From Dictyostelium discoideum (lineage: Eukaryota), in contig CM000151.3 in assembly GCA_000004695.1 (NCBI GenBank), positions 6,304,001-6,368,000 of the forward strand: DNA of 64,000 nt. Reading direction: 5' to 3'. The notes under the pieces were generated by a model. The model saw only the letters and a list, made by a program, of their open reading frames with translations, searched no databases and was not told the origin of the DNA. Positions 1 through 64,000 of the stretch are shown here, one piece after another. The position numbers and the translations under genes are program-made. The stretch's first letter is position 1; each line of letters starts with the position of its first letter.

Positions 1-1656
1 CATACTCAAGTAGTTTCCAAACGTTCCTTTGCCACTAAATATATTCAACAACTTTTATCCAATTGTGTCTCTGCTGGTTTAAATATTGCCACATCACCAG
101 AGGAATTATTACCAACACTCATGAGTGGTAGAGTATTATGTGAATTGATCAATAAAGTTTACCCAGGCACTATAGATGAACGTGTAATTCAAAAGACTCA
201 ACAATTTTGTAAAAAGAATTTAATGTTGGCTTATAATGGTGCTAAGGCACTTGGTGCAACATCAGTACCAGATATCGTCTTCTTATCCGATGATAAAGAT
301 ACCATTTCATCCACTGTATTACATAATTTAACTTGGTCAATCGTTGAAACTTGTCTTCTTCAATCAGCTGATCCAACAAAGAATCGTCATCTCTTCCATC
401 TATTGAGAGCTGAGACCAGAACAAGTTTCATGAAGTTAGAGAAAGAAAAGATTATGTTACGTTGGTTCAATTATCATCTAAGAAAAGGTAGTAGTCGTTC
501 CATCAATAACTTCACTGACGATCTTGAAGATTGTGAAAATTATGCCTATCTCTTTTCAATTATCGCTCCACAACATTCTTTGAAATCTGAAATCCTCAAA
601 GAAAATGATTGGGAGAAGAGAGCAGAGATGGTACTCTCAATGGCTGCTAAAATCGGTTGTATGTCATTGTTAAGTCCACGTGATATCGTTGAAACTGAAA
701 ATAGTCAACTCAATCAATTATTCGTCGCCGATATTATGAGAGTTGCTCACGGTTTACCAGCTTATCAATTCCGTTTAGATGTTGAACAATTGGATGATCA
801 AGTTCAAAAATCAAAGGATCAAGGTAACAATGATGTTGAACTCCTTCAATGGGTAAATGGTTTAGCCATTGATGGTGTCGATGCTAAACATCTCTTGGAG
901 GACTTTAAGTCGGGTTATCTCTTTTTAAAGATCTTTGAAAAAGTTACACCACCTGGTACTTTGGATGCAAAGAGATTCAAAACCAATCCAACCAGTGTTT
1001 TCAAAATGGTTGAACTATGTAATTATACAATGGAAATCTGTCATAAATTTAAATTAAATGTTGCTGGTACAGCTGGTACCGATTTGGCCAATGGTGATAT
1101 TCGTTCAAATCGTGCCATTCTCAATCAAATTCGTCGTGTTATCGTTGGTGAAAAGACTGTTGTTGATTCAGTCATTGCCAATCAATCTGCTGTCTTAAAA
1201 TGGGCAAACAACAAGATTGGTTTGGATGTAAAAGTAAAGAGTATTCAAAGTTTCAAAGATCAATTCCTTCAAGATGGTTTATTCCTCTTGGAATTATTAT
1301 CCTCTATAGAGCAAAACTCTGTAGATCGTAAAAATATCATCACTAATTGTTCCAACGAAGAACAACAAGAATCAAATTGTCGTTACTTTTTATCTTGTGC
1401 TTGGTCAACTGGTATACCTTTAAATGTAGTTTGGGAAGATGTTCAAAAAGTTAGATCAAAATCAATCAAACATATTGTTGAAACTTTACAATCTTGGGAC
1501 TTATTAAAATCTCAACATCAAAATTTAATTAATAATAATAATAATAATAACAATAATAATAGTAATAATAATAATAATAATATTAATAATAATAATAATA
1601 ATAATAGTAATAATAATAATAGTAATAATAATAATAATAATAGTAATAATATATAG
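1..1656 (+). CDS. Fimbrin/plastin-like actin-bundling protein with tandem calponin-homology (CH) domains; 5'-partial (frame open from base 1), ends in a poly-Asn tail
   Basis: The frame runs without stops from nt 1 through the 121..1656 ORF. Repeated CH-domain signatures are visible, including '...LMLAYNGAKALGATSVPDIVFLSDDKDTISSTVLHNLTWSIV' and 'LLRWFNYHLRKG...NFTDDLEDCENYAYLFSIIAP'. Codon usage is Dictyostelium-like and the C-terminus is (AAT)n-encoded poly-N. The fimbrin family assignment is inferred from the presence of at least 3 CH-like segments. Confidence 0.55.
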   Translation, partial: HTQVVSKRSFATKYIQQLLSNCVSAGLNIATSPEELLPTLMSGRVLCELINKVYPGTIDERVIQKTQQFCKKNLMLAYNGAKALGATSVPDIVFLSDDKDTISSTVLHNLTWSIVETCLLQSADPTKNRHLFHLLRAETRTSFMKLEKEKIMLRWFNYHLRKGSSRSINNFTDDLEDCENYAYLFSIIAPQHSLKSEILKENDWEKRAEMVLSMAAKIGCMSLLSPRDIVETENSQLNQLFVADIMRVAHGLPAYQFRLDVEQLDDQVQKSKDQGNNDVELLQWVNGLAIDGVDAKHLLEDFKSGYLFLKIFEKVTPPGTLDAKRFKTNPTSVFKMVELCNYTMEICHKFKLNVAGTAGTDLANGDIRSNRAILNQIRRVIVGEKTVVDSVIANQSAVLKWANNKIGLDVKVKSIQSFKDQFLQDGLFLLELLSSIEQNSVDRKNIITNCSNEEQQESNCRYFLSCAWSTGIPLNVVWEDVQKVRSKSIKHIVETLQSWDLLKSQHQNLINNNNNNNNNNSNNNNNNINNNNNNNSNNNNSNNNNNNSNNI

Positions 1657-2372
1657 TATCATTACAAATTAATATAAATAAAATTTTTTTTTAAATTGTA
1701 TAAAAAATGTTTCCTATAAATTATGATTAAGTTTGTTGTATTTAATTTCGTTATTAAAGTTTTATTAGATTGGACTGAATTAATTTTTTTTTTTTTTTTT
1801 TTTTTTTGGTGTTATTCAATTTTATTATTATTTTTATTTTTATTCTCAAAACTATTAGTTTTATAATAAATAAAAACCAGTTTGTATACCTCTTCTTTTA
1901 TTATGTAAATATTAATTTGATTTTGTTGGTGATTATTAAATATTTAATTTCATATTTATTTTAGAGTTGATGGAAAAAAATAAAAATGAAAATAAAAATT
2001 TTCAACACAAACCCTCAATGACAGATTTTAATAATAAACAAATAATTTTAAATTATTAAATAGAATTAAAAAAATGGAAAAAACAACCAATAACAATATA
2101 AAGGGATTGCAGTTAAAAAATAATAGTAATAATTTTAAAAAAAAAATTAAAAAAAATAATAAACAAATCCAATTAATTATAAAATATTATATTAATATAA
2201 TATATTTTATAATATCTTTTTAAAAAAAAAATAAATAAATAAAAATATTTTTAAAAAAAAAAAATTTTTTTTAAACAAAAATTTTTTTTTTATAGGATTT
2301 TTCGTTCGTTTTTTTTTTTTTTTTTTCAAGATTAGTCTAATTATAACCACGGAAAAAAAAAAAAAAAAAAAA

Positions 2373-2610
2373 ATGGAGTTGAATAATATAGTGGATGATG
2401 AATACTTTAAAAGTTATTTCAATTTAAATGTTCATGAAGTAATGTTAAAAGATAAACCAAGAACTTTAGCTTACAAAAATGCAATAGAGTTAAATTCGAT
2501 TGATTTTCAAGATAAAGTGGTAATTGATGGTAAAAAAAAAAAAAAATAACCCATATAATCAGTCAATAGAAATAATTATTTTTTTATTAACATTTATTTT
2601 AAATAAATAA

Positions 2611-2683
<73 letters not shown>

Positions 2684-3707
2684 TAGTTGGATCAGGTACA
2701 GGTATATTATCAATGTTTGCAGCAAAAGCAGGAGCAAAAAGAGTATATGCAATTGAAGGATCATTAATGGCAGGATATTGTTCACAATTGGTTCAACATA
2801 ATAAACTTGATTCAATTATAAAGGTAGTTCATAAGAGAATGGAAGAAATTACAGATGAAATTGAAGATGAAAAAGTTGATATCATTATTTCAGAGTGGAT
2901 GGGATTTTATTTATTTCACGAATCAATGTTAAACAGTGTATTGTATGCACGTGATCGTTATTTAAAAGATAATGGTATAATGTTTCCATCTAGAGCAGAT
3001 ATATTTTTAGCACCAGTAAATATGAATAAATTAATGGATAAAAAAATAAACTTTTGGAATGATGTATATGGTTTTGATTTTTCAATTTTATCTGAACCAG
3101 CTCTTCAAGAATTACCAGCTCCATATGTTGAATATTTAGAAAAAGATCAATTAGTTTTAAAAGAAAATAAAATTTTATCTGTAAATTTTAATAGTATGTA
3201 TATATATATATAATTAAAATTTATTAAACCACCCCCATACAAAAAAAGAAAAATTTTATTAACACTATAGATTATTTAATTAATATAAAAATAGCAATTA
3301 CATGTGAAGAATTAGAAGATATAATAATAAATAATATAGATTTTAAATTTCCAGAAAATATTAAACCAAAAACTATTCACGGATTTGGAATTTGGTTTAT
3401 TTGTTATTTCGACGGATCAAAAGGTACTGTCGAATTATCAACAGCACCAGGTGATCCAGAAACTCATTGGAAACAAACTACAATCCTTTTACCATCAGGT
3501 ATTGATTTAGAAGGTGGAGAAACAATGACTTGTAGATTACAAATGACCCAAGATTCTTTGAATAAAAGAATTTATGATTTAAATTTAGAGTTTCCAGATG
3601 ACGAAGAACAAGAAATGGAACAAGATGGTGATGACGATGATGATGAAGAACATGAAGAATCATGTGATTGTTTAAAATGTAAAATCATTAGAGAACATTC
3701 AAAATAA
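2373..3707 (+). CDS. prmt1: Protein arginine N-methyltransferase, type I (PRMT1-like). Three exons: 2373..2529, 2687..3193, 3295..3707
   Basis: Exon 1 ends '...VVID'. Intron 1 runs GT(2530) to AG(2686) and contains an (AAT)n microsatellite. Exon 2 begins with the SAM-binding motif 'VGSGTGILSMFAAKAGA' (split across the junction as VVID|VGSGTG) and carries 'SEWMGFYLF' plus the 'YGFDFS' motif. Intron 2 runs from the GTATGT donor at 3194 to the AG at 3293-3294. Exon 3 carries the PRMT signature 'THWKQT'. Frames are continuous across both junctions, giving about 358 aa. Confidence 0.85.
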
Positions 3708-3784
3708 ATTTTTATTAAATTTCTTTTTTAAATATTAAGATTAAAATTGTTTTTAAAAAATTATTTTATTATGAGTTTTAATGT

Positions 3785-6700
3785 TTAATCAAATAAATTT
3801 TCCACATTTTTAGCTTTTGGTTTTGATTTCGAAGGAGTTGCTTTTGTTGGAGTTGCTTTTGTAGTTGTGTTGGTATCATCATCGAATAAATTATCAACGG
3901 CTTTAGTTGATTTTGCTTTAGTAGTAGTTGTTGTAGTTGTTGTTGTTGTTGATTTTGAGGTTGTACTAGTAATATCATCGAAAATATCATCAGAAATAAC
4001 TGGTTTAGTAGTTGATGATGCTTTTTTGGCTGCAGCACTTTTAACTGAAGCTTTTGGTCTTGAAATAATATCTGGGATATCATCAAAGAATGAATCTGTT
4101 TCAGATTTAGTTTCAACTGCTTTGGTTGATTTCTTGGTTGTTGTAGTTTTTGGTGTTTCTTTTGGTTGTTCTTTTTCTTTTGTTTGTTCTTTTTCTTTTG
4201 GTGTTTCTTTTGGTGTTTCTTTTGGTGTTTCTGGTTCAGATTTTTTAGGAGCAGAGGAAAGAGCAGCTTTGGTTTCAGAAGCAGTTGGTTTAGTAGTAGT
4301 AGATGCAAAGATATCACCTAATGGGTCAATTGTAACTTTTTCTGATGTTGATTTAATAGTTGGAGATGGTGAAGATTTACCACTAGAAGTTTTTTCTGAT
4401 GGAATATCATCAAAGAATGATGTATTTGAAATAGTCTTCTTTGTTGGTTCAGAAACAACTGGTTTGGTTGTAATTGGTGAAGAGGATCTGACTTTTTCAG
4501 ATTCTGAATCGGATTTTTGAGTTGGAGTTGGAGATTCTGATCTATTTGGAGCAGAAGTACCAGATTTACGAGTTGGAGGTCTACGACCACCAGATTTTGG
4601 TCTACTTGCAGTTGCATGAGTCAATTCTTTAACTGGTTCACTTTCTTCAGAGTCATTATTATTACGAGACGAAACTGTATTTCTACGTGGTCTACCACCA
4701 GATAGGGTTGGAGAAGTGACAGATGGTGATGATCTACCAGAATCTGATAAATCAGTTGCAGATGAATCATTATCATTATTTGTACTACTATCATCTTCAT
4801 TTTCTGATTCTTCTTTCTTTTTCTTTGGCATTTTAGATCCTGGTAAAAACATATTTGGATTTAATGATAATTTATTTTGAAGTGACGAAATATTTGATGT
4901 TTTCTTTGTTGGTTCAGCTTTTTCTGATGTTGGTGATTCTGATCTATTCTTTTCTTGTTGTTGTTGTTGTAGTTGTTGTTGTGCTTCAAACATTGATCCA
5001 ATTGATTTAGTTCTATTCTTTGTATTATTACTTGTTAATGGTGATGGTACATCCTCTCCTAATGGTGATGGTGGTGGAGGTGGTTTTGCATTATTATTAT
5101 TGTTGTTATTTGTGAATGTTGGTAAACCTAATGAAAGTGGATCATCAGATTCAATATTTGCTGTTGTAGATGTAAGTGGTGGTGTAGTAGTTGTCTTTGA
5201 TTTTGGTTTTGTAATTCCTAATGGATCATCACTACCAGAGAAGAAACTATCAAAATCTGATGATTTCTTTTCTTCAACTTTTTTATTACCGCTACTAGTA
5301 TCCAAATCACCAAAAAAGTCTTTACTTGATGTTGTTGTTGTTGTTGTTGTTGTTGATTTCTTTGTTGTTGATGAGAAAATATCATCATCATTCTTTTTAT
5401 TTGATGATAATGGTGAATCTGTGTCTTCAAAATCGAAAAAGTTTGATTTAGTTGATTTTTTAACTGCTGGTTTATTTTCAGTAGCAGTTGTTGATGATGA
5501 TGTTGTTGGATTTTTTTTAATTGAGAAATCACCAAATACTGATTCTTCGTCACCACCACCGAGTGGGTTAGATTCTTTCTTGTCTGATTCAACTTTGGTT
5601 GGTTCAACTTTTGCTGGTTCAACTTTTGTTGGTTCAGCTTTGGTTGGTTCGACTTTGGTTGGTTCAACTTTAGTTGGTTCAGATTTTGCTGGTTCGTCTT
5701 TTGTTAAATCACCATCAAAGAAATTAGTTTTCTTTGGTTTTTGAGCGACTGGTTTTTTAATATCACCAAATAATGGGTCTGATTCAATGGTTGAAACTGG
5801 TGATGCTGGTGAAATAGAAGCTTCTGATGGTTTTTTGATATCAAGTCCACTAAATGGATCAATTGATGGTGTTGTTGTTGTATCTTGTTTCTTCTTTGGT
5901 TCCTCAGTGATTGGTTGTTTCTTTGTTTCTGTTGTTGTTTTACTTGAATCAAAACTAAATAAATCATCATCACCACCACTCTTTTTATTTGATGATAATG
6001 GTGAATCTGTATCTTCAAAATCGAAAAAGTTTGATTTAGTTGATTTTTTAACTGCTGGTTTTGTGGTTGTTGTTGTTGTTGCTGTTGTTGGTGCTTTTGG
6101 AATATCAAGATCATCATCAGTAGTAGTTGATTTAGTTGGTTTAGTTTCTTGTTCTTTTTTAGAATTTGCTTTTGGAATATCAAATGAATCATCATCATTA
6201 CTACCAGCAGCACCAACTCCAAATGGATCTTGAACTTTTGGTTTATTTTTATCACTAGAGATTGAATCAATTCCAAGTACATCACTATCGACATATTTCT
6301 TTGGATCATGTCTTTTAATTTTCTTTTCTGGTACATCTAATAAGCCACCTTCTGAACCAAAGATTTCAGCATCCTTCTTGGTTGCAGATGTTGATTTCTT
6401 ATCTGATGAGAAAAAGTCATCCTCTGATGCTTTTGACTCTGTCTTTGGTGCTGGTGATGGAGATGATTTACCACCAGTGCCAACTTTCTTTCCACTGAAT
6501 ATATCACCACCAGCAGCATCGAAATCAAATAATTTAACACCACCAACTGGTTTCTTTGGTGCTGGACTACTTTTACCAGTTGTTGACTCACTACCTGATG
6601 CATCTGAATCAGGTATTGGAGTTGGTGGTTTGGTAGTAGTTGCTGTTGGTGCTGCTGATGTTGTAGTTGATTTTGGTTTTGGAGTACCAAATAGATCATC

Positions 6701-7287
6701 TTCATCCATACCATCCAAAAAGCTAAGTGATGATGATTTCTTTGTTTCTTTTTTGGTTGCTGGTGTTAGATCTTCATCAGTGAATAAATCATTTAATGTT
6801 TTCTTTTGTTGTGGTTGTGAAGAGGTAGTAGTTGAATCTTTTTTAGAGGTTGGTAAAGCTGTTTCATCATCACCAAATAATGAATCATCAAATGTAACTT
6901 TTCTACTAGCACTACTTTTTGGTGCAGGTGTTTCTTCAGAATCACCGAATAAATCATCATCAAACATTGATTTCTTCTTTGGTTTTGAAGTGGTTGTAGT
7001 TGAACTACTACCACCGAATAAATCATCGTCACCTCCTTTATTCTTTGAAGATAATGTATTATTAAGTTCATCAGCGAATGGATCTTTCTTTTTAGTTGGT
7101 TCATCACCATCTGCATCTTCTTGTTGTTGTTGTTTCTTTTTACTACCACCGAATAAATCATCTTCATCATCACCACCTAAAATATCTGATAATGAAGAAG
7201 TGTATGAATTTGATGATTTTTTACTTGCGACTGGTTTATCACCGAAAATATCATCCTCATCTTCAAATAATGATTCAGACTATAGTA

Positions 7288-7321
<34 letters not shown>

Positions 7322-8017
7322 GAATTAATAAAAATCATTATAAAAAAAAAAAAAAGAAAACAATAATGAATAACTACCTTCTTATTTGCATTATTTTCAG
7401 ATGTAGCATCTTCATCTTGGAAGAAAAAGTTTTGTTGTTTTGGTTGTTCATCAGTGAGGAACAATGTTGATTGTTGTTGTTCATCTTTTTCATCATCATC
7501 ATCACTACTACTTTCACTTGAAGATTCATCACTACCATCCTCAGCATCAACATCTTCCTCATCTTCTTCATCTGAAGAATCAGAATCAGAATCTTCAATG
7601 AATAAACCACAGAAATCATCTTGATGAAATTGTTGTGAACCAATGATATGTGGTAATGGGTATCTTAAATAGTGATCTAATTTCTCTTTCTTCTTTTCTG
7701 TATTTGCTGATGGTTGTGCATCAGTACCTGCTTGTTCACCACCTTCAACTAAACCGCCTTCAGCTGATGATGCTGCAATACTACCATTCATTTGTTGTTG
7801 ATAATCATTATTATTGTTATTACTATTTGATTGTTCTGAAATTTCCAATGCTGCATTTACAAAGTTTGCTTTCTCTAATGCTTCCAAACCAATTAATATT
7901 GCTTTTGAAAATTTTGGTATTAATATTTCTTCTGTAATCTCTTGTTGTTGTGGTTTATCTGTTTGTTCATTTTGCTCATTATTTAATTCTGAATTATCTT
8001 CATAAACTCTCTGTTTG

Positions 8018-8060
<43 letters not shown>

Positions 8061-8539
8061 TTTATATTAATAATTATTCTACTTTAATGAAATAATAATA
8101 ATTTATATATATATATGAGTATAGTCATACATTTTCAATGAATTGAGTATTTGATAACATTAAAAATTGATCAAATGTATTATGAACTTTAACATGAATT
8201 GATTTTGAATCTTTAACTAATTCATCAACTTGAAATTCTAATTCTTTAGTTTTATAGATAAGTTTATTTGCAAAATCTTGCATATAATTTAAAAGCTGTA
8301 TTGATATTTTGAAAAAAAATTTTAAGATTTTATTAGTGATCACTTTAAAAAGAGGTATATTAAAAAAAAAATAAGTATAGTAAATAAATACTTACACCTG
8401 CATCTGATGATAAATTCCAATCCTTTGCAGAATCTCTCATTTCATTGATTGTCCATACTTTTTTCCATGGTACATCATCTGGGTTCGATGGTTGTTCACG
8501 AACTGGTTGTTGTTGTTGTTGTGGTTGTTCTTCAGGCAT
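3785..8539 (-). CDS. fam21: WASH complex subunit FAM21 homologue. Four exons (minus strand): 8539..8396, 8295..8131, 8010..7378, 7279..3785; about 1478 aa
   Basis: The N-terminal head is strongly FAM21-like: exon 1 'MPEEQPQQQQQPVREQPSNPDDVPWKKVWTINEMRDSAKDWNLSSDAG', exon 2 'LLNYMQDF...[18 protein letters not shown]', exon 3 'RVYEDNSE...PLPHIIGSQQFHQDDFCGLF'. For comparison, human FAM21 has '[24 protein letters not shown]' and 'PLPYLIGSKLFMEQEDVGL'. The long last exon is a disordered D/E/K/S/T-rich tail with more than 25 dispersed acidic-Phe motifs (DDDLFG, DDIFDD, DPFG, NFFDFED), resembling FAM21 LFa motifs. Introns: GTAAGT donor at 8395 with AG at 8297-8296; GTATGA donor at 8130 with AG at 8012-8011; a weak GTAGTT donor at 7377 with AG at 7281-7280. 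All junctions are frame-consistent. Confidence 0.8.
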
Positions 8540-9320
8540 TTTATTTTATAGCCTATTAATATAATTTATAATCCTATTTTAAACAAACAAACAAACAAAA
8601 AACAAAAAGGATGTAAAAATTATAAATTAATACTTTATATAAAATAAAAAACGAAAAACAATTATTTATATACAAATAAAATAAAAAAATAAAAAATGAC
8701 AAGATTTTTTTTTTTTTCAACAAAAAAAAACTTTTTTTTTTTTAATTTTTATTTTTAATGAAATTTATGTAAACTTTTCAAAAAAAAAAAAAAAAATAGA
8801 AAATTGTTTTTTTTATTTTAATAATTTAATTTTTAATCTTGTTTTTTTTTTTTTAATTTCTATTAATAAACAAAAATATTGAAATTTTAAAAAAAAATAA
8901 ACCAAATAAACTAAATAAAAAACAATTATAAAAAATGATAAAAAAAAATAAATACTAAAAATAAAATTTTTGATTAAAAAAAAAAAAAATGGATTTAGTC
9001 GTTTATCATTTTGTATATTTTCGAGTGCCCTATTTATCCATAATTCTAAAATAAAAATAAAAAAAAAATAAAAAAAAAATTCTAAAATTAAAAAAGATAA
9101 AAATAAAAAAAAAGAAATCTTATTGTTTGGTTTTAGAATTACATGAAATAATACAAAATTTTATTATATCTTAATTTAAAAATTATTTCTATTATTAATT
9201 TTTTTTTTTTTTTTTTTTAAATATTAAAAAAAAAAAAATTTAACATTTGTAAAATATATTTTTTTTTTTTTTTCTTTTAATTATTATAACTTAATTTAAA
9301 AGAAGATAAAGTTCCACCAT

Positions 9321-12300
9321 TTAAATTGATAAACCTTCAATTGGATAAACTTTTCTTGGAGTTCTTGGAGTTCTAATTTTTGGAGAATAAGCGTGATAAC
9401 GAATATTATCTTCAGCATTCTTTTTAGCTTTTTGTTCAATTATATTTTGAATACGAGGATTAACGATGGATTCAATATCCAATTTCAAGAGAATAGTTGG
9501 ATCAATGGCAGTGGCAGTGAAAGAACGAGTTGGTAGGAAATTACTATCTTCATTTGAACGTCTGTAAGCGGTTTCACCGAAAAAGTCACCAACATTTAGA
9601 TAACGAATGATATTTTTATTCTTTTTACTATGAATTCTAACTCTACCTTGTTTAATGATATACATAGAGTCACTTGTATCACCCTCATTGAATATGACTT
9701 GATGATGAGCAAATGAAACATCCTTTGAACCATTGGCAATGCTATCGACCTCTTCTTTATTGATATGTTGAGTGATATTATGTTGGAATGCACGAATGAT
9801 AGCATCACGACAAGAATTGATATGAGATAAATCCATATGCACCTTGGAGATAAAAGTATTTAGATTTGAATGGAATTCAGTACGAAGATCCATAGTTTTC
9901 CAAACCAATAAGCAAACGTCAGTCTCTGCAATGACGGTTGCTGAAGCATCGATATTCTTATCCAATTGTAAAGCACTTTCACCCAACGTTTCACCAGCAC
10001 ATAATTTAATAGTTGGGATTTTAATTGCATCAGTTTTAACGGTGGTTGTAATTGTAGTGGTATCAGTCACAACTGTACCCACCGAAGTTGTAGATTTGAT
10101 TGGTTCATATTCATTCTCGTAAACCAATACTTTGCCACTAAGAATGATATAAAACATATCGGATGGCGAGCCTTTCTTAATGATAACATCATTACGTTTA
10201 ACCCAAATTTTCTTACATAAAAAGAATACTCTTTGAACTTCAGCTGGTGATAATTTTGAGAAAACACTACAATGATTTAAAGCTGTTTGAATTTGAATAC
10301 ACTCTGCCACTCCTTTATATTTTCTATCAACTTTAATGATTTCAGTATTCTCTAAACCTTCTTTTGGACGTATAATCTCACCTTTAGTATCCACTGAACT
10401 ACTACAATGAACGACTCTAATCTTCTTCCTTATCTCTGATGGTAACTCCAAAAGGTTTGCCATTGGTGTATGAATTGGTGCTACACCACTTTCATGAATA
10501 ATCATATCAGCATCAAATACAAATGATTTCAATCTTTCAATTCTCTTTTTTGATAACACACCTTGATCTTTTAATTGTTTAAACTTTTGTAAATCATAAA
10601 ATGTATCTGCTGAATAACTTATCTTTTTATTATAAATTTCTAATTTAAATCTAATTGTTGGTATAACATGAAAACTATAATCAAATTCAAATTCTAAATA
10701 AAAAAAAACCAAACCAATTATTAGTATTAATTTAAATTAAATTATTATTTATGTAATTAAATTACTACTTACCAGCACCTAAAATTTTAATTTTATTACC
10801 AATTGTAACTGGTACCCAAGTATAATAATTTTTTAAACTTTGTTCAGGTAAACCAGTTAATGCTTTTAATTTTCTCATATAAGATTCATTGATAGTTTTA
10901 GTAGTATATAGGGTAACTTTATTTCTTTCAATGATTTTTTGAAGGATACCACTATCATGATCTGCATGACAATGTGTTAAAATGATATGTTCAACTGTTT
11001 TACCATAGATTCCATTTGTTTGAAGATATGTTGTATTACCAACTGGTGGATCAACAACAACACCACTACCATTAATCCAAATGATGAAACCAGTCGTATG
11101 TGAACAATGTGTAAAATCTAAACCATGACTAACACCCAAAAATGTTACACCTAAAATTGGTGCTTTAAATTTCTTTACTTGTTCATGATCATTACCAAAT
11201 GGTAACACTGGTACATATTGTGATTCAATAGTTGAATCAATTACTGAAACTGTATTATTCTTTAATATAATTCTATTACCACTTGTATTTATCATTTGTT
11301 TATCAGTAGTTGATGATGATGATTTATCTTGTTGATCTTGTTGTTGTTCTTGTAATTTTAAATGTAATTGTTTTTGAACTACATGATAATCTTCATGAAA
11401 ACTAATTAAACCTTTAGTATTTCTAATTCTAAGGTTAATTAATTTTGTTGGATCACTTGCAGATGGTAAATCAATATCAACCACACCAAAGGTATCAAAA
11501 GTTTTAAAGATAACATAACTATCTAACTTTTCGTCATTTGCTCTTGGATCAATTGCTAAACGTTCAGTTAATAAATCAATTTTATAATCTGGTATGGTGA
11601 TCTCTTCATCAGTGTAGATGTGTTCAGGAGCTGGACCAAAGATTGACTCACATAGGATGGTTTCAATTCTTTGTTTTTGTTCCACTGTACAAATGATTAC
11701 AACCTTGGTTTTACCTTTTTGTACGAATTTGTTATAGAAAATTGGGAATTCAACCTCTGACAATGAGACATCTTTTGATATTAAGAAATGGGGTACAATG
11801 AAATGACAAATGCTTTGATCCCTTTTCAATGTGTCTGGTGGAATACCAACCTGAATAGACACATTACAATCCGATGGTGTGAACACATACGATGGTCCAC
11901 TAACTTGCATGATCTTATCTTTTGAATAGAATGGCTCTTTATTTTTTTGTAAATACTGTTGTTGTTGTTGCTTTTTTTGTTGCTCAGTTGTGCCATTTCT
12001 TTGTTGAGTTCTTGGTGAATCGTTTATTATCATTTTAGATGATGATGATGATGCTTGTTGTGATTCTAATATATTTAATAGTGATTGAAAATCATTGATC
12101 AATATTGAAATGTTTGAGTCGGGTGACTGGTTATTCTCATTGGTTAATTCTGTAAAGAATCTTTGAATGTCGGTATAATCATTTTCGTTGAACACGCCAC
12201 TGACACTATTATCCAACTGGTTCACTGGTGCCGATAGGTATGCCAATAGCTTTTGTTTTTCATTTGATCTATCGATGGTTTGAGAAACCTTTTCAAAGGT

Positions 12301-56341: not shown

Positions 56342-58780
<2,439 letters not shown>

Positions 58781-59099
58781 AACAAAAACAAAATAAAAAA
58801 AAAAACAAAATAAAAACAAAACAAAATAAATAAAAATAAATATATAAATTTAATTTTTGTATTTTAAAATGTAATTGTTTGTGGAAAGTGTTTTTTTTTA
58901 CTTATTATATCTCAGTTTTCAAATTGTGTTTTATTCGAAATCTTTTGTATTATTTTAAGCTCCCTGTCCAAAAAAACTTTTAAAATTTTTTTTTTTTTTT
59001 ACCTGTGATCAGACCTTCAAGGAATGTCCTTGTGTCTTTTCGGCGGTGTTTGTTAAACGATTTTATTTTTATTATTCAATTGTATTAAATTTTTTAAAC

Positions 59100-59106
<7 letters not shown>

Positions 59107-59147
<41 letters not shown>

Positions 59148-60450
59148 ACTACTTAAATTGGAAGAGGGTTCGGAACTGCTGGGGTTTGCCAGGCTTTGTT
59201 GAATTTGTATTTGTGAAGATCTTGATTGGTGTTTTTTAGACATATCAAAATACAACAGAACTGAGAGAATCTTCCCCAATCTCATAGGAATAATAGCACA
59301 CCAATTATGGAAGATAATCTGTCACAAATTGTTCAACACTGATGAAAGCAAACCAGAGCCAAAATTCGAACAAAAGGTCATAGAAACAGAATTACTAAAT
59401 CTCATAAAAAAAAAATTATAAAAAAACACCAATCAAGATCTTCACAAATACAAATTCAAAGCCTGGCAAACCCCAGCAGTTCCGAACCCTTGGTATCCAT
59501 TGACCATCTGTGGATTTTGATGAATGATAATTTGTTAACTGTTGATATGATGGTTTTTTCAATATCTAGGATATCTTGGCATAGAGTGAAGAGGTGAGAA
59601 TAAGGGTCTCTGAATAGATGGCCACAGATCTTGCATCTGGTGTCTCTTTCGTGGTTGATACCTGGAAGTGATCTTGAGAAGAATCTGAAGAGGGTGTTTC
59701 TACCTTTTTGGTGAGAAATGCTGTTGATGTTTATGAATACTTTGGGTATTGCTGTGTTGTATCTCACCGCCCATAACTTCTGCCATTCTGTTCTTCTTGG
59801 TGTTGGGTGTCTGTCTTTGATCATGAGTTCGTAGATTTCTTTCAGTTTTAGTGGTTCGTCATTGTCGTTTCTTATACAGTCTGGAAGTTCATTTATCTTT
59901 GGATGGTTTTGGTAAAATTTGACTCTGAATACACCCCAGTGTCTGCACATATCGTTGAGGGTTGAAGTGTGGGCTTTTTTTCTACTTAATTGCTCCATGT
60001 ACCATTCTTGTAAAGTATTGTTGTTGTTGTTGTAGTTGTTATGGAGTAGCCTGTTCATGTACCAGATTTTGAATGCTATATGTCTTAGTTCTATATCCCA
60101 TAATTTTATGCCTCCTTCTTTCCAATCTGCATATGCTCTGTCTATTTTCATCATAGTTTTGTATTTTCTCTCTTCTGTATATGTATTCTTAACTGAGGAG
60201 AATAAGAACCATCTGGTCATGTTATTGATTTCCTCAATTTGTTCTTCATTTAGATTATCCATGTATTGATGGTATGTTAATTTGGATAGAACGTATGTTT
60301 TGAGAATTGTCATCTTTGCCTTCATCGTTATTGCTTGTGATTTCCATTTGATAAGATTGTTTTTCATTTCTTGGATTAAAGTGTTGTATTTTGAATTTAA
60401 ACCTGTTTTGGTGAAATTGAGGCCAAGATATAAAAAACTTTTAAAATAAT
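59107..60450 (-). mobile_element. 5'-truncated non-LTR retrotransposon fragment (TRE-family, probably TRE3-type given its position downstream of a tRNA gene). It retains the ORF2 C-terminus, the 3' UTR and poly(A)
   Basis: The minus-strand ORF 60447..59456 is '...LGLNFTKTGLNSKYNTLIQEMKNNLIKWKS...CKICGHLFRDPYSHLFTLC...GSELLGFARL*' (RT-distal region with a Cys/His knuckle). Its 5' end is cut by in-frame stops about 70 bp from the tRNA 3' end. A poly(A) tail (seen as T36 on the plus strand, 59110..59146) ends the element. The 3' region contains a 70-bp perfect inverted repeat. Confidence 0.55.
59161..59481. repeat. Roughly 70-bp near-perfect inverted repeat (arms 59161..59230 and 59412..59481) separated by about 180 bp
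   Basis: Plus-strand 59161-59230 is 'ggaagagggttcggaactgctggggtttgccaggctttgttgaatttgtatttgtgaagatcttgattggtgtttttt'. Plus-strand 59412-59481 is 'aaaaaaacaccaatcaagatcttcacaaatacaaattcaaagcctggcaaaccccagcagttccgaaccc'. This is its reverse complement apart from a 3-nt indel. Confidence 0.8.
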
Positions 60451-60518
60451 ATAAAACAATTTAAAAAACTGATTCGAGTATTTCCGGAACTTCGGATTTT
60501 GATATAAATACTAAAAAG

Positions 60519-60591
60519 TGGTTCTACTGAGACTCGAACTCAGATTACAGGATTCAAAGTCCTGGGTGCTAACCAATTACACTATAAAACC
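60519..60591 (-). tRNA. tRNA-Gln (anticodon UUG)
   Basis: The minus-strand sequence is 'GGTTTTATAGTGTAATTGGTTAGCACCCAGGACTTTGAATCCTGTAATCTGAGTTCGAGTCTCAGTAGAACCA'. It folds as a 7-bp acceptor stem (GGTTTTA/TAGAACC), a D-arm, an anticodon arm CCAGG-A-CTTTGAA-TCCTGT with TTG in the loop, and a T-arm GAGTTCGAGTCTC. It is 73 nt long. Confidence 0.85.
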
Positions 60592-60636
60592 TTATGATTT
60601 TCAATATTTTAAAAATAAGACATCGTTTAATTTTCA

Positions 60637-60898
60637 CAAAAAAACAAACAACAACAACAATCTCTTTTTTTGATTATTTCATTTTTCATATAAAAAAGAC
60701 TTAAAAAACAAATAAATAAATAAATAAACTATTTTAAAAAGCCATCTTTTTACTTTATTGTAATTTATTATTTGTTTCGTTTTGAGAATTTTGCGTAGCA
60801 AAATTTTCAAAAAAAAAGCAAAAAATAATCAGATCGAAAAAAACAAACAACAACAACAATCTCTTTTTTTGATTATTTCATTTTTCATATAAAAAAGA

Positions 60899-60978
<80 letters not shown>

Positions 60979-62684
60979 GGAACCAAGTTAATTAGAAAAT
61001 TTCCAGATTTTTAACTTTTTAAAGAAAAATAAAAAAGATAGAAAGAAAATAAAATGAAAATCACAAACAACACCACAAATATTAAGCAACACAAATGCCT
61101 ACAAAAAATAAGCGAAATTGTGGATAAAACTCAATTAAAAAAAAAACAATTCAAATACGTCATAAACATCAATCACGAACCAGACGATAAAATAAAAAAA
61201 GATTTAGAAAAAAGTTTGGACAAAAAAGATGTTTTAATCAAAAGTAATAATACATTCAAAATTCTCACAGACAGTATTAGTACAGTAATCTATTTTGTAA
61301 ATATGTTTGATGCAGAATTAAAAGGACAATTTATAACCACTATAAGACCAAAAAATATGTATACAGATTTTGATTGGTATAAATCACTCACAGAAATAGA
61401 ATGGGTAATAGAAAATGAAGGATGTAAACTAATTAAATCAGAAATTAAAGGCGAAACTCTAATTATCAAAACAGTGAAAAGAGTCGTAGAAGAATTTGAC
61501 ACTATCATTGAACTAGACAATCTAACATTAATTGGACACTCCAACAAAGGATGGAGAGATCAAACCTCATTACCAGAAAATCAAGAAGAAAACAAAAATA
61601 AAAAACAATCAGATGAACAACAACCACAATCTACATCAGAACAAATACCAAAACAAGGAAAAAGAACAATCATTATCCCACCAATCACATCCTCATCTAA
61701 TGATAAAACATTTATGGCCCTAGATGATACAGCTCAAAAGGTAATAGAAGCATCACTAGAAAACGTAGATGAACTAACAAGAATAGAGAATGAGATCAAT
61801 ACACAATCGATAAACAATCAAGAAATTAAAACAAAATCAGAAAAACCTATCGAACCACCATCTCCATACAATACACCAATAAAACAACACGGCGAAACAA
61901 AGGGACTAACAACGGAAGAAAAACTTAGAGAGGCAAATGATATCTTCGACTTCACCAGCCCAAACACTGATGCAATAAGAAAAATAGAATTCCCACTTTC
62001 AATCCCTTCAAATCAATGGTTCTTCTCCTCTCCAATAAAACATATCATGAGTTTCAGCCCAACCTATGGTACACCATCGAAAATTATCGATTCACCAAGT
62101 AAATTGTTAAACACACCAAAAAAGAAACAACAAGACAAAACAAACAAGACCAACAAAACACCAGTCAAACCAAAATTGGGTGAATATGGACAAAAAAGCA
62201 TAAAAACAAAAATGGATGAAGATATAGACAACTTCAACAAGGAAATTCTAAAACAAATCAATAAATCAAAAAACCCCACAAACACACAAGACCAACAACA
62301 CAACGAACAAAGTAAAGATCAGTTAGAAGACAAAATAAACCAGAAACTTCAAAAGGTAGATAAAAATCTACCCCAAATAAAACTATAAAGAAAAACACAA
62401 TAAGAATAGGTGTTTGGAACGTCCAAGGATCCAACACCATCCAATCTGCCAGCATAATAAACACCGTTTTAGACAACAACAAGCTGGACGCAGCACTTCT
62501 AACTGAAACAAATATAAAAACAAATAAAATTTACTCAATAAATCAACAATATAAAAACAAAATAACACACCACGCACCAATTGATAAAACAGGACAAGGG
62601 GTGTCACAAATCATCATCAACACCCGCAATAGAACTTCCTAAACATCTCAAAAAATACAATAATTCACTCAGTACTTTCTATAA

Positions 62685-62742
<58 letters not shown>

Positions 62743-63061
62743 CAAGTTAATCAGAAAAATAAAAAAGATAGAAAGAAAATAAAATGAAAATCACAAACAA
62801 CACCACAAATATTAAGCAACACAAATGCCTACAAAAAATAAGCGAAATTGTGGATAAAACTCAATTAAAAAAAAAACAATTCAAATACGTCATAAACTTC
62901 AATCACGAACCAGACGATAAAATAAAAAAAGATTTAGAAAAAAGTTTGGACAAAAAAGATGTTTTAATCAAAAAGACCCTGTAAAAAAAAAAAAAAAATA
63001 AAATGAGATCTAGCATCTCAAGGAGAAGCAAATAATAATTGCGTTATCCAATTCAAAAAAA
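60637..63061 (+). mobile_element. Composite tRNA-gene-targeted non-LTR retroelement of the TRE5 type. It has 5' repeat modules, an intact ORF1, ORF2 truncated after the AP-endonuclease N-terminus, internal poly(A) tracts and a partial second copy. It is bounded by a 15-bp target-site duplication
   Basis: The element starts about 45 bp upstream of the tRNA-Gln 5' end, the classic TRE5 position. Two copies of a 72-bp module sit at 60640-60712 and 60838-60912. Poly(A) runs at 60905..60973 and 62688..62740. A 5' leader 'ccaagttaat..agaaaaataaaaaagatagaaagaaaataaaATG' recurs at 60974 and 62741. ORF2 begins 'IRIGVWNVQGSN' (APE-like) and is then truncated. The direct repeat 'atcgtttaattttca' at 60622-60636 and 63062-63076 flanks the whole block. 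Confidence 0.6.
61054..62388 (+). CDS. TRE5-like ORF1 protein (444 aa)
   Basis: An intact ORF sits directly after the repeated 5' leader. Its first 66 codons are duplicated almost identically at 62784..62984 (VININHEPDD versus VINFNHEPDD). It has the K/E/N/Q-rich ORF1 character typical of TRE elements. Confidence 0.55.
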   Translation: MKITNNTTNIKQHKCLQKISEIVDKTQLKKKQFKYVININHEPDDKIKKDLEKSLDKKDVLIKSNNTFKILTDSISTVIYFVNMFDAELKGQFITTIRPKNMYTDFDWYKSLTEIEWVIENEGCKLIKSEIKGETLIIKTVKRVVEEFDTIIELDNLTLIGHSNKGWRDQTSLPENQEENKNKKQSDEQQPQSTSEQIPKQGKRTIIIPPITSSSNDKTFMALDDTAQKVIEASLENVDELTRIENEINTQSINNQEIKTKSEKPIEPPSPYNTPIKQHGETKGLTTEEKLREANDIFDFTSPNTDAIRKIEFPLSIPSNQWFFSSPIKHIMSFSPTYGTPSKIIDSPSKLLNTPKKKQQDKTNKTNKTPVKPKLGEYGQKSIKTKMDEDIDNFNKEILKQINKSKNPTNTQDQQHNEQSKDQLEDKINQKLQKVDKNLPQIKL

Positions 63062-63654
63062 AAAAAATCGTTTAATTTTCAAATTTTTTAAAATAAATTT
63101 ATAGAATTGATTGGAATTATTTGAATATGCAGAAGTAAAATTTAAAAGAGACTTCAATCTTAGACCCAAATAAAAGGTTGTACAATATATCTATTGTACT
63201 TTTTTCATGATGATATTTAATAGTTAAACCGGTTTATATATTAAGTATTAAGAAATTTTTTTTTTATTTATTTTTTTATTTTTTTTGGGTTGAATAAAAA
63301 TAAAAGTTCTTTTGGTAATTAAAAAGGTTATTAATAGTCTTAATTATTGAATTTTTTAATGTTGGGCAAATTTTAAATATTTTACAAAAAAAAAAAATTT
63401 AAAATATTTTTTTTTTTTTTTTAAAAAACTTTTCTTTGATTTGTTAAATTATTAGAAATTTTTTGATTTGTTTGATAATATTTTTTTTTTTTTTTTTTTT
63501 AAAAAATAGATATTTTAACAAATCAAAAAAAATCTCGCAAAAGAAGCCCAAATTTTAAAGATAAAAAAAAAAAAAAAAAATTTATTTTTAAAATTTTTTT
63601 TTTTTTTTTTATTTTGTAAAAAATTCTAAAAATAAATAGAAATATATAAATAGA

Positions 63655-64000
63655 ATGAAAATTCAATTAATTTTAATTCTTTGTTTATTTTATTTTATAA
63701 AATTAAATAATTCACAAGCCACTATTTTTGATACATACACATGGACAGGTGATGTTGGTAATTATTCGATTGTACTAACTGGTACGGGTTTTTCAACAGA
63801 GGATAATTTTGTGAATGTTAACGGTATAGCTTCAATTTGTTCAAGACCAACAATTGTTGGTACATATCAAAGACTTGTTTGTCCTCCATCAACAATCAAT
63901 ACAAATGTAGTAGAAGGAGGAGATTTAGTAGTTTTTATGAGAACTTATATTGGTGGTCCAAATTCGAATACTCAAAATTGGAAATTATTTAAAAAAATAA
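63655..64000 (+). CDS. Secreted protein, 5' part only (runs off the window end). Signal peptide plus an IPT/TIG-like segment
   Basis: The ATG at 63655 opens 'MKIQLILILCLFYFIKLNNSQATIFDTYTWTGDVGNYSIVLTGTGFSTEDNFVNVNG...'. This is a hydrophobic signal peptide followed by a 'LTGTGF' motif typical of IPT/TIG domains. There is no stop before 64000. Confidence 0.35.
   Translation, partial: MKIQLILILCLFYFIKLNNSQATIFDTYTWTGDVGNYSIVLTGTGFSTEDNFVNVNGIASICSRPTIVGTYQRLVCPPSTINTNVVEGGDLVVFMRTYIGGPNSNTQNWKLFKKI

Follow-up and report, generated by a model that had tools for sequence, protein, structure and literature searches.

A Dictyostelium discoideum tRNA-Gln(UUG) gene between a complete TRE5-A.2 element and a 5′-truncated TRE3-family copy, very probably two independent insertions

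How should a transfer RNA (tRNA) gene be read when retroelement sequence lies on both of its sides and when, on one side, the same leader and start of an open reading frame (ORF) appear twice, each time after a long run of A? Does such a locus record insertions that were nested in one another, or is it an ordinary one? The locus that raises this question lies in a window of 64,000 nucleotides of Dictyostelium discoideum (the whole stretch of DNA that was analyzed; positions 6,304,001 to 6,368,000 of the forward strand of contig CM000151.3, GenBank assembly GCA_000004695.1), and coordinates given below without a locus name count from its first nucleotide. An initial annotation had placed a tRNA-Gln(UUG) gene between a TRE5-type element upstream and a TRE3-type element downstream and had taken the upstream block for a composite produced by nested or tandem reinsertion. 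We conclude with high confidence that an intact tRNA-Gln(UUG) gene is flanked by two independent insertions, namely, a complete TRE5-A.2 element upstream and a 5′-truncated copy of a TRE3 family downstream. This arrangement is already known and well described, and it is ordinary for tRNA genes in D. discoideum; it is neither new nor nested. Anatomy, copy identity, target-site duplications (TSDs) and the distances and orientations relative to the tRNA gene were observed directly here, and the steps of the mechanism considered further below come from the literature.

The tRNA gene occupies 60518-60591 on the minus strand and is intact. ARAGORN and Rfam (RF00005, 67.4 bits) agree on tRNA-Gln(UUG), as had been proposed, and on its being the sole tRNA in the 64 kb. 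Reading of the sequence places a T5 terminator for RNA polymerase III directly at the tRNA 3′ end, where a spacer of 71 bp begins (60447-60517). The assignment of a TRE5-type element to the upstream side and a TRE3-type element to the downstream side was also borne out: the former lies in the opposite orientation to the tRNA gene at 45 bp, and the latter lies in the same orientation at 71 to 86 bp. Both insertions spare the tRNA gene and its terminator.

What, then, is the upstream block? The sequence at 60637-63066 on the plus strand is a single complete TRE5-A.2, a nonautonomous deletion derivative of TRE5-A (DRE). The published plan of TRE5-A is AB-ORF1/ORF2-BC, in which an A-module of ~200 bp is the promoter, a 290-bp B-module with the start of ORF1 is duplicated into the 3′ untranslated region (UTR), and the C-module stands at the 3′ end (PMC3159450). 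TRE5-A.2 is described as having a large deletion in ORF2 and as lacking 72 bp of the BC region, with the terminal 87 bp of C kept (PMC3159450). The block at our locus follows this plan throughout, with an A-module, a partial second A-module, an A-run, a B-module containing the ORF1 start, ORF1, a deleted ORF2, a second A-run, a second B-module, a shortened C-module and a poly(A) tail.

The A-module region (60637-60901) is recognizable as a 199-bp direct repeat, with one full unit at 60638-60836 and a partial second unit at 60837-60901, and eight other copies of the element match it at 100% over 263 nt. It ends at an internal A73 tract (60902-60974) that forms the junction of the A- and B-modules, a position at which all other copies also have an A-run of variable length. 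The 5′ B-module (~290 bp, 60975-61264) contains the ORF1 start codon at 61054 and matches the 3′ B-module of a full-length TRE5-A.1 element (locus L003, 4955-5294) at 97.7%. ORF1 (61054-62388) is intact, with 444 codons and a computed product mass of 51.3 kDa. Its product is 99 to 100% identical to multicopy "hypothetical proteins" of D. discoideum AX4, and an identical product is encoded at at least nine other places in assembly GCA_054883475.1 (loci L001 to L009). A Pfam search of the ORF1 in the window returned no significant domain, and TRE5-A ORF1 is known to lack recognizable domains. The ORF2 remnant (62364-62642, stop codon at 62640-62642) overlaps the end of ORF1 in the −1 frame; its translation comprises 92 codons, starts with "...IRIGVWNVQGSN" and consists of the putative endonuclease N terminus followed by a frameshifted tail. 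Both properties agree with the published description of TRE5-A, in which ORF1 encodes a 51-kD protein and ORF2 is reached by a −1 frameshift (PMC5911963).

The remnant is followed by an internal A54 tract (62687-62740), which separates the end of ORF2 from the 3′ B-module and is also present in TRE5-A.1 (L003 ~4960-5000). The 3′ B-module (62741-62973) is shortened to 233 nt, against 269 nt in the corresponding part of the 5′ module, from which it differs by one mismatch and by indels at its start. Over 221 nt the two modules are 100% identical (61023-61243 and 62753-62973), and with the indels allowed the duplication of the leader and ORF1 start extends over 60975-61243 and 62741-62973. The element closes with a C-module remnant of 81 nt (62974-63054), delimited by comparison with L003, and a terminal tail of A12 to A13, the two together covering 62974-63066. 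The remnant is predicted to fold into 3′ stem-loops (z = −2.4), consistent with the published stem-loop that is essential for retrotransposition. Long direct terminal repeats were found at the borders of neither this element nor the one downstream of the tRNA gene, and both elements have poly(A) tails.

Comparison with other copies shows that every junction in the block belongs to the family. We used nine fetched loci (L001 to L009), one of which, L003, also supplied the full-length TRE5-A.1 reference. Positions 60638-63067 align end to end at all nine, with the internal A-runs and the deletion junctions shared. Outside homopolymers, mismatches to the other copies number 0 in the 263-nt A region, 0 to 2 in the 1,712 nt that span the B-module, ORF1 and the deleted ORF2, and 1 in the 313-nt BC region; so few differences, 0 to 2 in 1.7 kb, fit the published view of the family as still active. 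Against L003, the block is collinear up to 62625 (L003 1763) and resumes 3.1 kb further on (L003 4897/8), the junction between 62625 and 62626 reading CACCC on its left and GCAAT on its right. The initial annotation was therefore right that ORF2 is shortened after its putative endonuclease N terminus and wrong in treating this as a cut at the locus: it is the family-wide deletion of 3.1 kb that defines TRE5-A.2. At the B/C junction (between 62973 and 62974) ~70 nt are missing relative to L003, and the C-module sequence that is left measures 81 nt here and 87 nt in L003, the gap being due to run lengths.

The likeness to TRE5-A.2, formerly DRE-b, thus includes the module order, the 199-bp A-module, the duplicated B-module, the 3.1-kb ORF2 deletion, the B/C deletion, the C-module stem-loops, the 444-residue ORF1 product of 51 kDa, the −1 frame of ORF2, the poly(A) tail, a TSD within the 13- to 15-bp range and a head-to-head position 45 bp from a tRNA gene. 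Nothing structural sets the window copy apart. It differs from the nine others in a longer A-run between the A- and B-modules (73 nt versus ~35 to 40 nt) and in an extra C at its extreme 5′ end, and the other copies contain 2 to 22 A-module units. Two units, one full and one partial, are present in the window copy and in five of the others; long tandem arrays of the 199-bp unit occur in L006 (22 units, 1627-5900), L001 (9 units, 4225-5900) and L007 (9 units, 4215-5900). The lengths of the two A-runs in the window, 73 and 54 nt, differ from those of near-identical copies, which may reflect either real homopolymer instability or assembly noise.

The borders of the element are fixed independently by its target site. 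The 15-mer ATCGTTTAATTTTCA stands next to the tRNA gene at 60622-60636, with the element starting at the next base, and an exact repeat search located its distal copy at 63067-63081. The 64 kb contain exactly 2 copies of this sequence, where shuffled sequences gave an expectation of 0. Is it a TSD or part of the element? Seven of the nine other copies have their own, unrelated repeats of 13 to 15 bp that abut identical element termini, and ATCGTTTAATTTTCA lies just outside the ends defined by copy comparison and is found at the termini of none of the other copies; it therefore represents a genuine target-site duplication and is not part of the element. A 15-bp direct repeat around the block had been proposed in the initial annotation, which gave as a check whether the repeat might be internal element sequence. 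That possibility is ruled against, and one genuine TSD stands; its second copy had been placed at 63062-63076, 5 bp from its actual position.

Between the first element base (60637) and the tRNA's 5′ end lie 45 bp (60592-60636), as had been estimated, and the two are arranged head to head, the element on the plus strand and the tRNA gene on the minus strand. TRE5-A is known to integrate 44 to 54 bp upstream of tRNA genes in opposite orientation (PMC5911963), and six of the nine other copies lie 45 to 50 bp from tRNA genes on the opposite strand (His, Val, Ser, Val, Ala and Gly). The copies at L003, L008 and L009, to which we return below, sit in or beside other TRE copies. That in L009 lies between a tRNA-Ser gene (8522-8603, minus strand) and a minus-strand ORF of 1,059 amino acids with reverse transcriptase (RT) similarity, as if it had been inserted into a TRE3-type element.

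On the other side of the tRNA gene, the sequence at 58986-60431 is a 5′-truncated copy of a TRE3-family retrotransposon without long terminal repeats (non-LTR), in the orientation of the tRNA gene. A 5′-truncated, TRE3-like ORF2 fragment on the minus strand, ~70 bp from the tRNA, had been noticed before, and both the fragment and its distance hold. Its limits had been set at 59107-60450 and do not. The T-run that served as the boundary at 59107 is an internal A36 tract of the element (59109-59144), located just past the ORF2 stop codon and followed by a distal 3′ UTR of 108 nt (59001-59108, ending ...GACATTCCTTGAAGGTCTGATCACAGGT) and the terminal poly(A) tail, A15 (58986-59000). The A36 tract has counterparts in three sister copies, at loci L010, L011 and L012; the UTR is 95 to 97% identical to L010 7714-7964, L011 8347-8613 and L012 9265-9506, and all three sisters end at the same terminal tail. 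The same layout of ORF2 stop codon, long internal A-run, conserved UTR of ~110 nt ending in ...CACAGGT and true poly(A) tail is thus seen at 59001-59144 in the window, L010 7806-7963, L011 8441-8610 and L012 ~9350-9506, and a related family present in L011 (7560-7800) is built alike.

The coding part of the copy begins, at its truncated 5′ end, with segment X (59492-60431), a piece of ORF2 that starts "YLGLNFTKTG" and covers the region after the RT domain, with a zinc knuckle of the form C-x2-C…H-x4-C. Sister comparison defined this segment, which at the nucleotide level is 98.9% identical to L010 6553-7491 and 98.4% identical to L012 8103-9042. Segment T (59145-59239), in normal orientation and collinear with L010 7714-7806, supplies the last ~30 ORF2 codons, ...NKAWQTPAVPNPLPI*, a C terminus also found in P0007. 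Pfam detected no significant domain in the fragment itself. Its protein shares 98% identity with an L012 ORF that has an RVT_1 domain in its upstream part. Identity falls to 66% with a second family (P0007), to 34% with a third and to 28% with the TRE5-A ORF2 C-terminal region (E = 1e−23); the values of 28 to 34% against other TRE ORF2s extend over ~290 amino acids, and the grouping is one by pairwise comparison. Because its longer relatives bear RT and its identity to TRE5-A ORF2 amounts to 28%, the fragment represents a TRE-type ORF2 other than that of TRE5-A. The copy is dead. It lacks ORF1, endonuclease and RT altogether, and a rearrangement described below has scrambled the C terminus of its ORF2.

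This element, too, is bounded by a 15-bp TSD, which the initial annotation had missed. The sequence AAAAAACTTTTAAAA abuts the first element base (60431) at 60432-60446 and the A15 tail at 58971-58985, and the window contains exactly two copies of it, with 0.1 expected by chance. The TSD begins 71 bp and the element 86 bp past the tRNA 3′ end, on the tRNA's strand (minus). TRE3 elements are known to integrate 40 to 150 bp downstream of tRNA genes and to share their orientation (PMC5911963). The sister copies, 98 to 99% identical to this one, behave likewise at three other tRNA genes, each in the tRNA's orientation and with its own TSD: in L010 downstream of a tRNA-Ser (72/87 bp), and in L011 downstream of a tRNA-Val and in L012 downstream of a tRNA-Gln (both ~50 to 65 bp). 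The window copy thus resembles the TRE3 family in orientation, in its distance of 71 to 86 bp downstream, in 5′ truncation, poly(A) tail and TSD, and in ORF2 homology and zinc knuckle; it differs from it in an internal inversion, a 73-nt inverted duplication and a loss of 53 nt. We found only a weak 7/9 match to an external B box 3′ of the window tRNA, ACTCGAATC (~60472-60480, by eye), and make no claim for it. A perfect external B-box-like motif, GGGTTCGAATCCC, stands ~30 nt past the tRNA in L012. The 98% identical copy there (L012 7169-9520, Dictyostelium citrinum) likewise follows a tRNA-Gln(UUG) gene; its flanking genes are different, and the locus is not orthologous. In L011, two TRE3-type elements of different families (68% identical at the nucleotide level) stand in tandem 3′ of one tRNA-Val gene (5847-8630), each with its own TSD, GTTTTGAGGTTGAT and TTGATGTTGATGATGT, as left by sequential targeting of one tRNA gene.

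Could the locus nevertheless be something other than one TRE5-A.2 and one TRE3-family insertion? For the upstream side, the alternative is a composite specific to this locus, made by nested or tandem reinsertion of TRE5 or by template switching; the poly(A) runs would then be the 3′ ends of separate partial copies. The initial annotation took this view, and its observations are real: the leader and ORF1 start do occur twice within the block, with a long A-run before each, and TREs are known to insert in tandem, one after another, at a single tRNA gene (note to Table S2, PMC5006619; also seen in L002, L003 and L011). The duplicated leader and ORF1 start are, however, the B-module, which TRE5-A has in both of its UTRs (PMC3159450), and the nested reading fails at this locus; the repeat that seemed to betray a composite is the defining structure of TRE5-A in the literature. 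Nine further loci, whose flanks differ, have this arrangement down to its junctions, and TSDs of their own border seven of these copies; identity outside the A-runs is near perfect, full-length TRE5-A.1 (L003) shares the A-run and the 3′ B-module that follows it, and the block contains no internal TSDs. We regard a composite formed at this locus as extremely improbable. A reinsertion may have taken place long ago in an ancestor of TRE5-A, not at the window locus. Nor can the other copies be segmental duplicates of the window locus, since they have unrelated flanks and their tRNA genes differ. For the downstream side, the corresponding doubt is whether the fragment is TRE3 at all and not Skipper-2, DGLT-A, another LTR element or an unrelated non-LTR element that came to lie near the tRNA gene by chance. 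Skipper-2 is indeed published as targeting the downstream side of tRNA genes, and the fragment has no Pfam domain by which to name it. Yet the fragment ends in a poly(A) tail, is bounded by a 15-bp TSD, lacks both LTRs and an integrase, is 98% identical to copies in which RVT_1 lies upstream and shows homology with the TRE5-A ORF2 C-terminal region (E-value as above), so that this alternative, too, has hardly any likelihood. DGLT-A and Skipper-2 were rejected as candidates also in their own right: long terminal repeats are absent, there are poly(A) tails, and the only relatives found are non-LTR ones of the RVT_1 type.

Several points weigh against our reading that the tRNA gene is flanked by a TRE5-A.2 and a TRE3-family insertion. 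Three of the nine other TRE5-A.2 copies (L003, L008 and L009; ~5600-8000) have no ARAGORN tRNA within ~50 bp of their 5′ end. The match of the full-length ORF2 N terminus to an endonuclease domain (Exo_endo_phos) scores 20.6 bits, below the Pfam cutoff of 24.5, and a sequence search of the PDB with this N terminus gave no meaningful match; RVT_1 is clear in the full-length ORF2 of L003 (116 bits), and its zinc finger was seen by eye only. The names TRE5-A.2 and TRE3 were given by published structural descriptions and by behavior rather than by alignment to type sequences, that of TRE5-A being GenBank X57034 (supplement of PMC5006619), and the downstream fragment is assigned to TRE3 at the level of the family, which comprises TRE3-A to -D. 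Finally, the comparison that reveals the inversion within the TRE3-type copy comprises three sister copies.

This inversion, with an inverted duplication, is the sole unusual detail of the locus and had gone unnoticed in the initial annotation. In the sisters (L010, L011 and L012) the segments follow one another in the order X-S-M-T, and ORF2 ends in "...PNPLPI*" ~10 nt before the internal A-run. In the window copy the order is X, inverted T′, a 13-nt filler, inverted S and T, and segment M (53 nt) is missing. The inverted block of ~250 nt (59240-59491, plus strand) matches L010 7788-7492 and L011 8421-8125 in reverse orientation only. It consists of S inverted (~59237-59405), the filler A10TTA and T′ inverted (~59419-59493), T′ being the first ~75 nt of T. 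The resulting inverted duplication of 73 nt has arms at 59165-59237 and 59421-59490 that match at 96%, with a 3-nt indel between them. The end of X coincides with the exact start of S in canonical copies, and the junction of inverted S with T shows a 3-nt microhomology (TAA/TTA). A transcript of this region is predicted to form a hairpin with a long stem (−156 kcal/mol, z = −15). Among all fetched loci, k-mers spanning the rearranged junctions were found in the window only.

Is the inverted block real, and if so, how did it arise? Long homopolymers and inverted repeats are prone to errors in assembly, the A-runs vary in length among otherwise identical copies, and only one of the four copies has the inversion; the block at 59240-59491 might thus be an assembly artifact, as might the lengths of the long A-runs. 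We consider this improbable for the block, whose junctions are clean, whose arms differ by the 3-nt indel and whose flanking TSDs are intact; the loss of the 53 nt of M and the 13-nt filler are moreover not expected from a simple misjoining of canonical reads. Since the outer TSDs are intact, the rearrangement arose either at insertion, by template switching or a process akin to twin priming, or later, by inversion at the DNA level with staggered breaks. Twin-priming inversions are a feature of mammalian L1 insertions that Ostertag and Kazazian reportedly described in 2001. The window copy is like the L1 case in that the inverted segment inside it runs directly into a 3′ end of normal orientation with 3 nt of microhomology, and the parts of the window copy could derive from two cDNAs with annealed 3′ ends. 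It is unlike it in that the inverted part of an L1 insertion is reportedly its 5′ end and abuts target DNA, whereas here the inverted block is preceded upstream by ~940 nt of ORF2 in normal orientation; in addition, one breakpoint was reused exactly, which an inversion of DNA by staggered breaks would explain equally well. One tentative idea, which we think unlikely to be correct, is that the scrambled 3′ part was left by an accident of target-primed reverse transcription, either twin-priming-like or by template switching. When the literature was searched for twin priming in Dictyostelium, nothing relevant came up, and the TRE literature examined describes no such rearrangement. If the idea were true, this would be the first such case for a Dictyostelium TRE within the literature searched, and a read-through transcript would form a double-stranded RNA stem of ~73 bp that could feed RNA interference against the downstream TRE3 family.

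A search of the rest of the 64-kb window for further TRE-related sequence found none. Two protein-coding genes, both undisrupted, border the intergenic gap, which is filled by the tRNA gene with its two insertions. On the side of the TRE3 copy, a low-complexity ORF of 812 amino acids (56342-58780), a relative of Naf1/Gar1-domain proteins, ends 190 bp from the TSD; PF04410 is present in its homologues, and the homology search was swamped by low-complexity words and gave distant dictyostelid matches only. On the other side, a signal peptide-like ORF starts at 63656 (63656-64000 within the window).

How would the upstream insertion have come about? By analogy with published work on these families, TRE5-A.2 would be transcribed from its A-module promoter, and the ORF1 protein would contact TFIIIB at the tRNA gene. 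The ORF2 protein of TRE5-A.1 would then mobilize TRE5-A.2 in trans by target-primed reverse transcription, a step that would need the stem-loop of the C-module. For TRE3, targeting may be directed downstream of internal or external B boxes.

The importance of this locus is small beyond its correct annotation, for which it holds two lessons. In TRE5-A, internal A-runs together with the duplicated B-module imitate nested insertions, and in the downstream TRE3 family the internal A-run imitates a poly(A) tail. Since homopolymers mislead in both families, the ends of such elements should be set by comparison of copies together with TSDs.

[quoted passage not shown] A "safe haven" strategy has been published for TRE elements, and both insertions here fit it, with the tRNA gene and its terminator intact. 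As a clear, textbook case, the locus shows how retrotransposons in a gene-dense genome can land safely beside tRNA genes.

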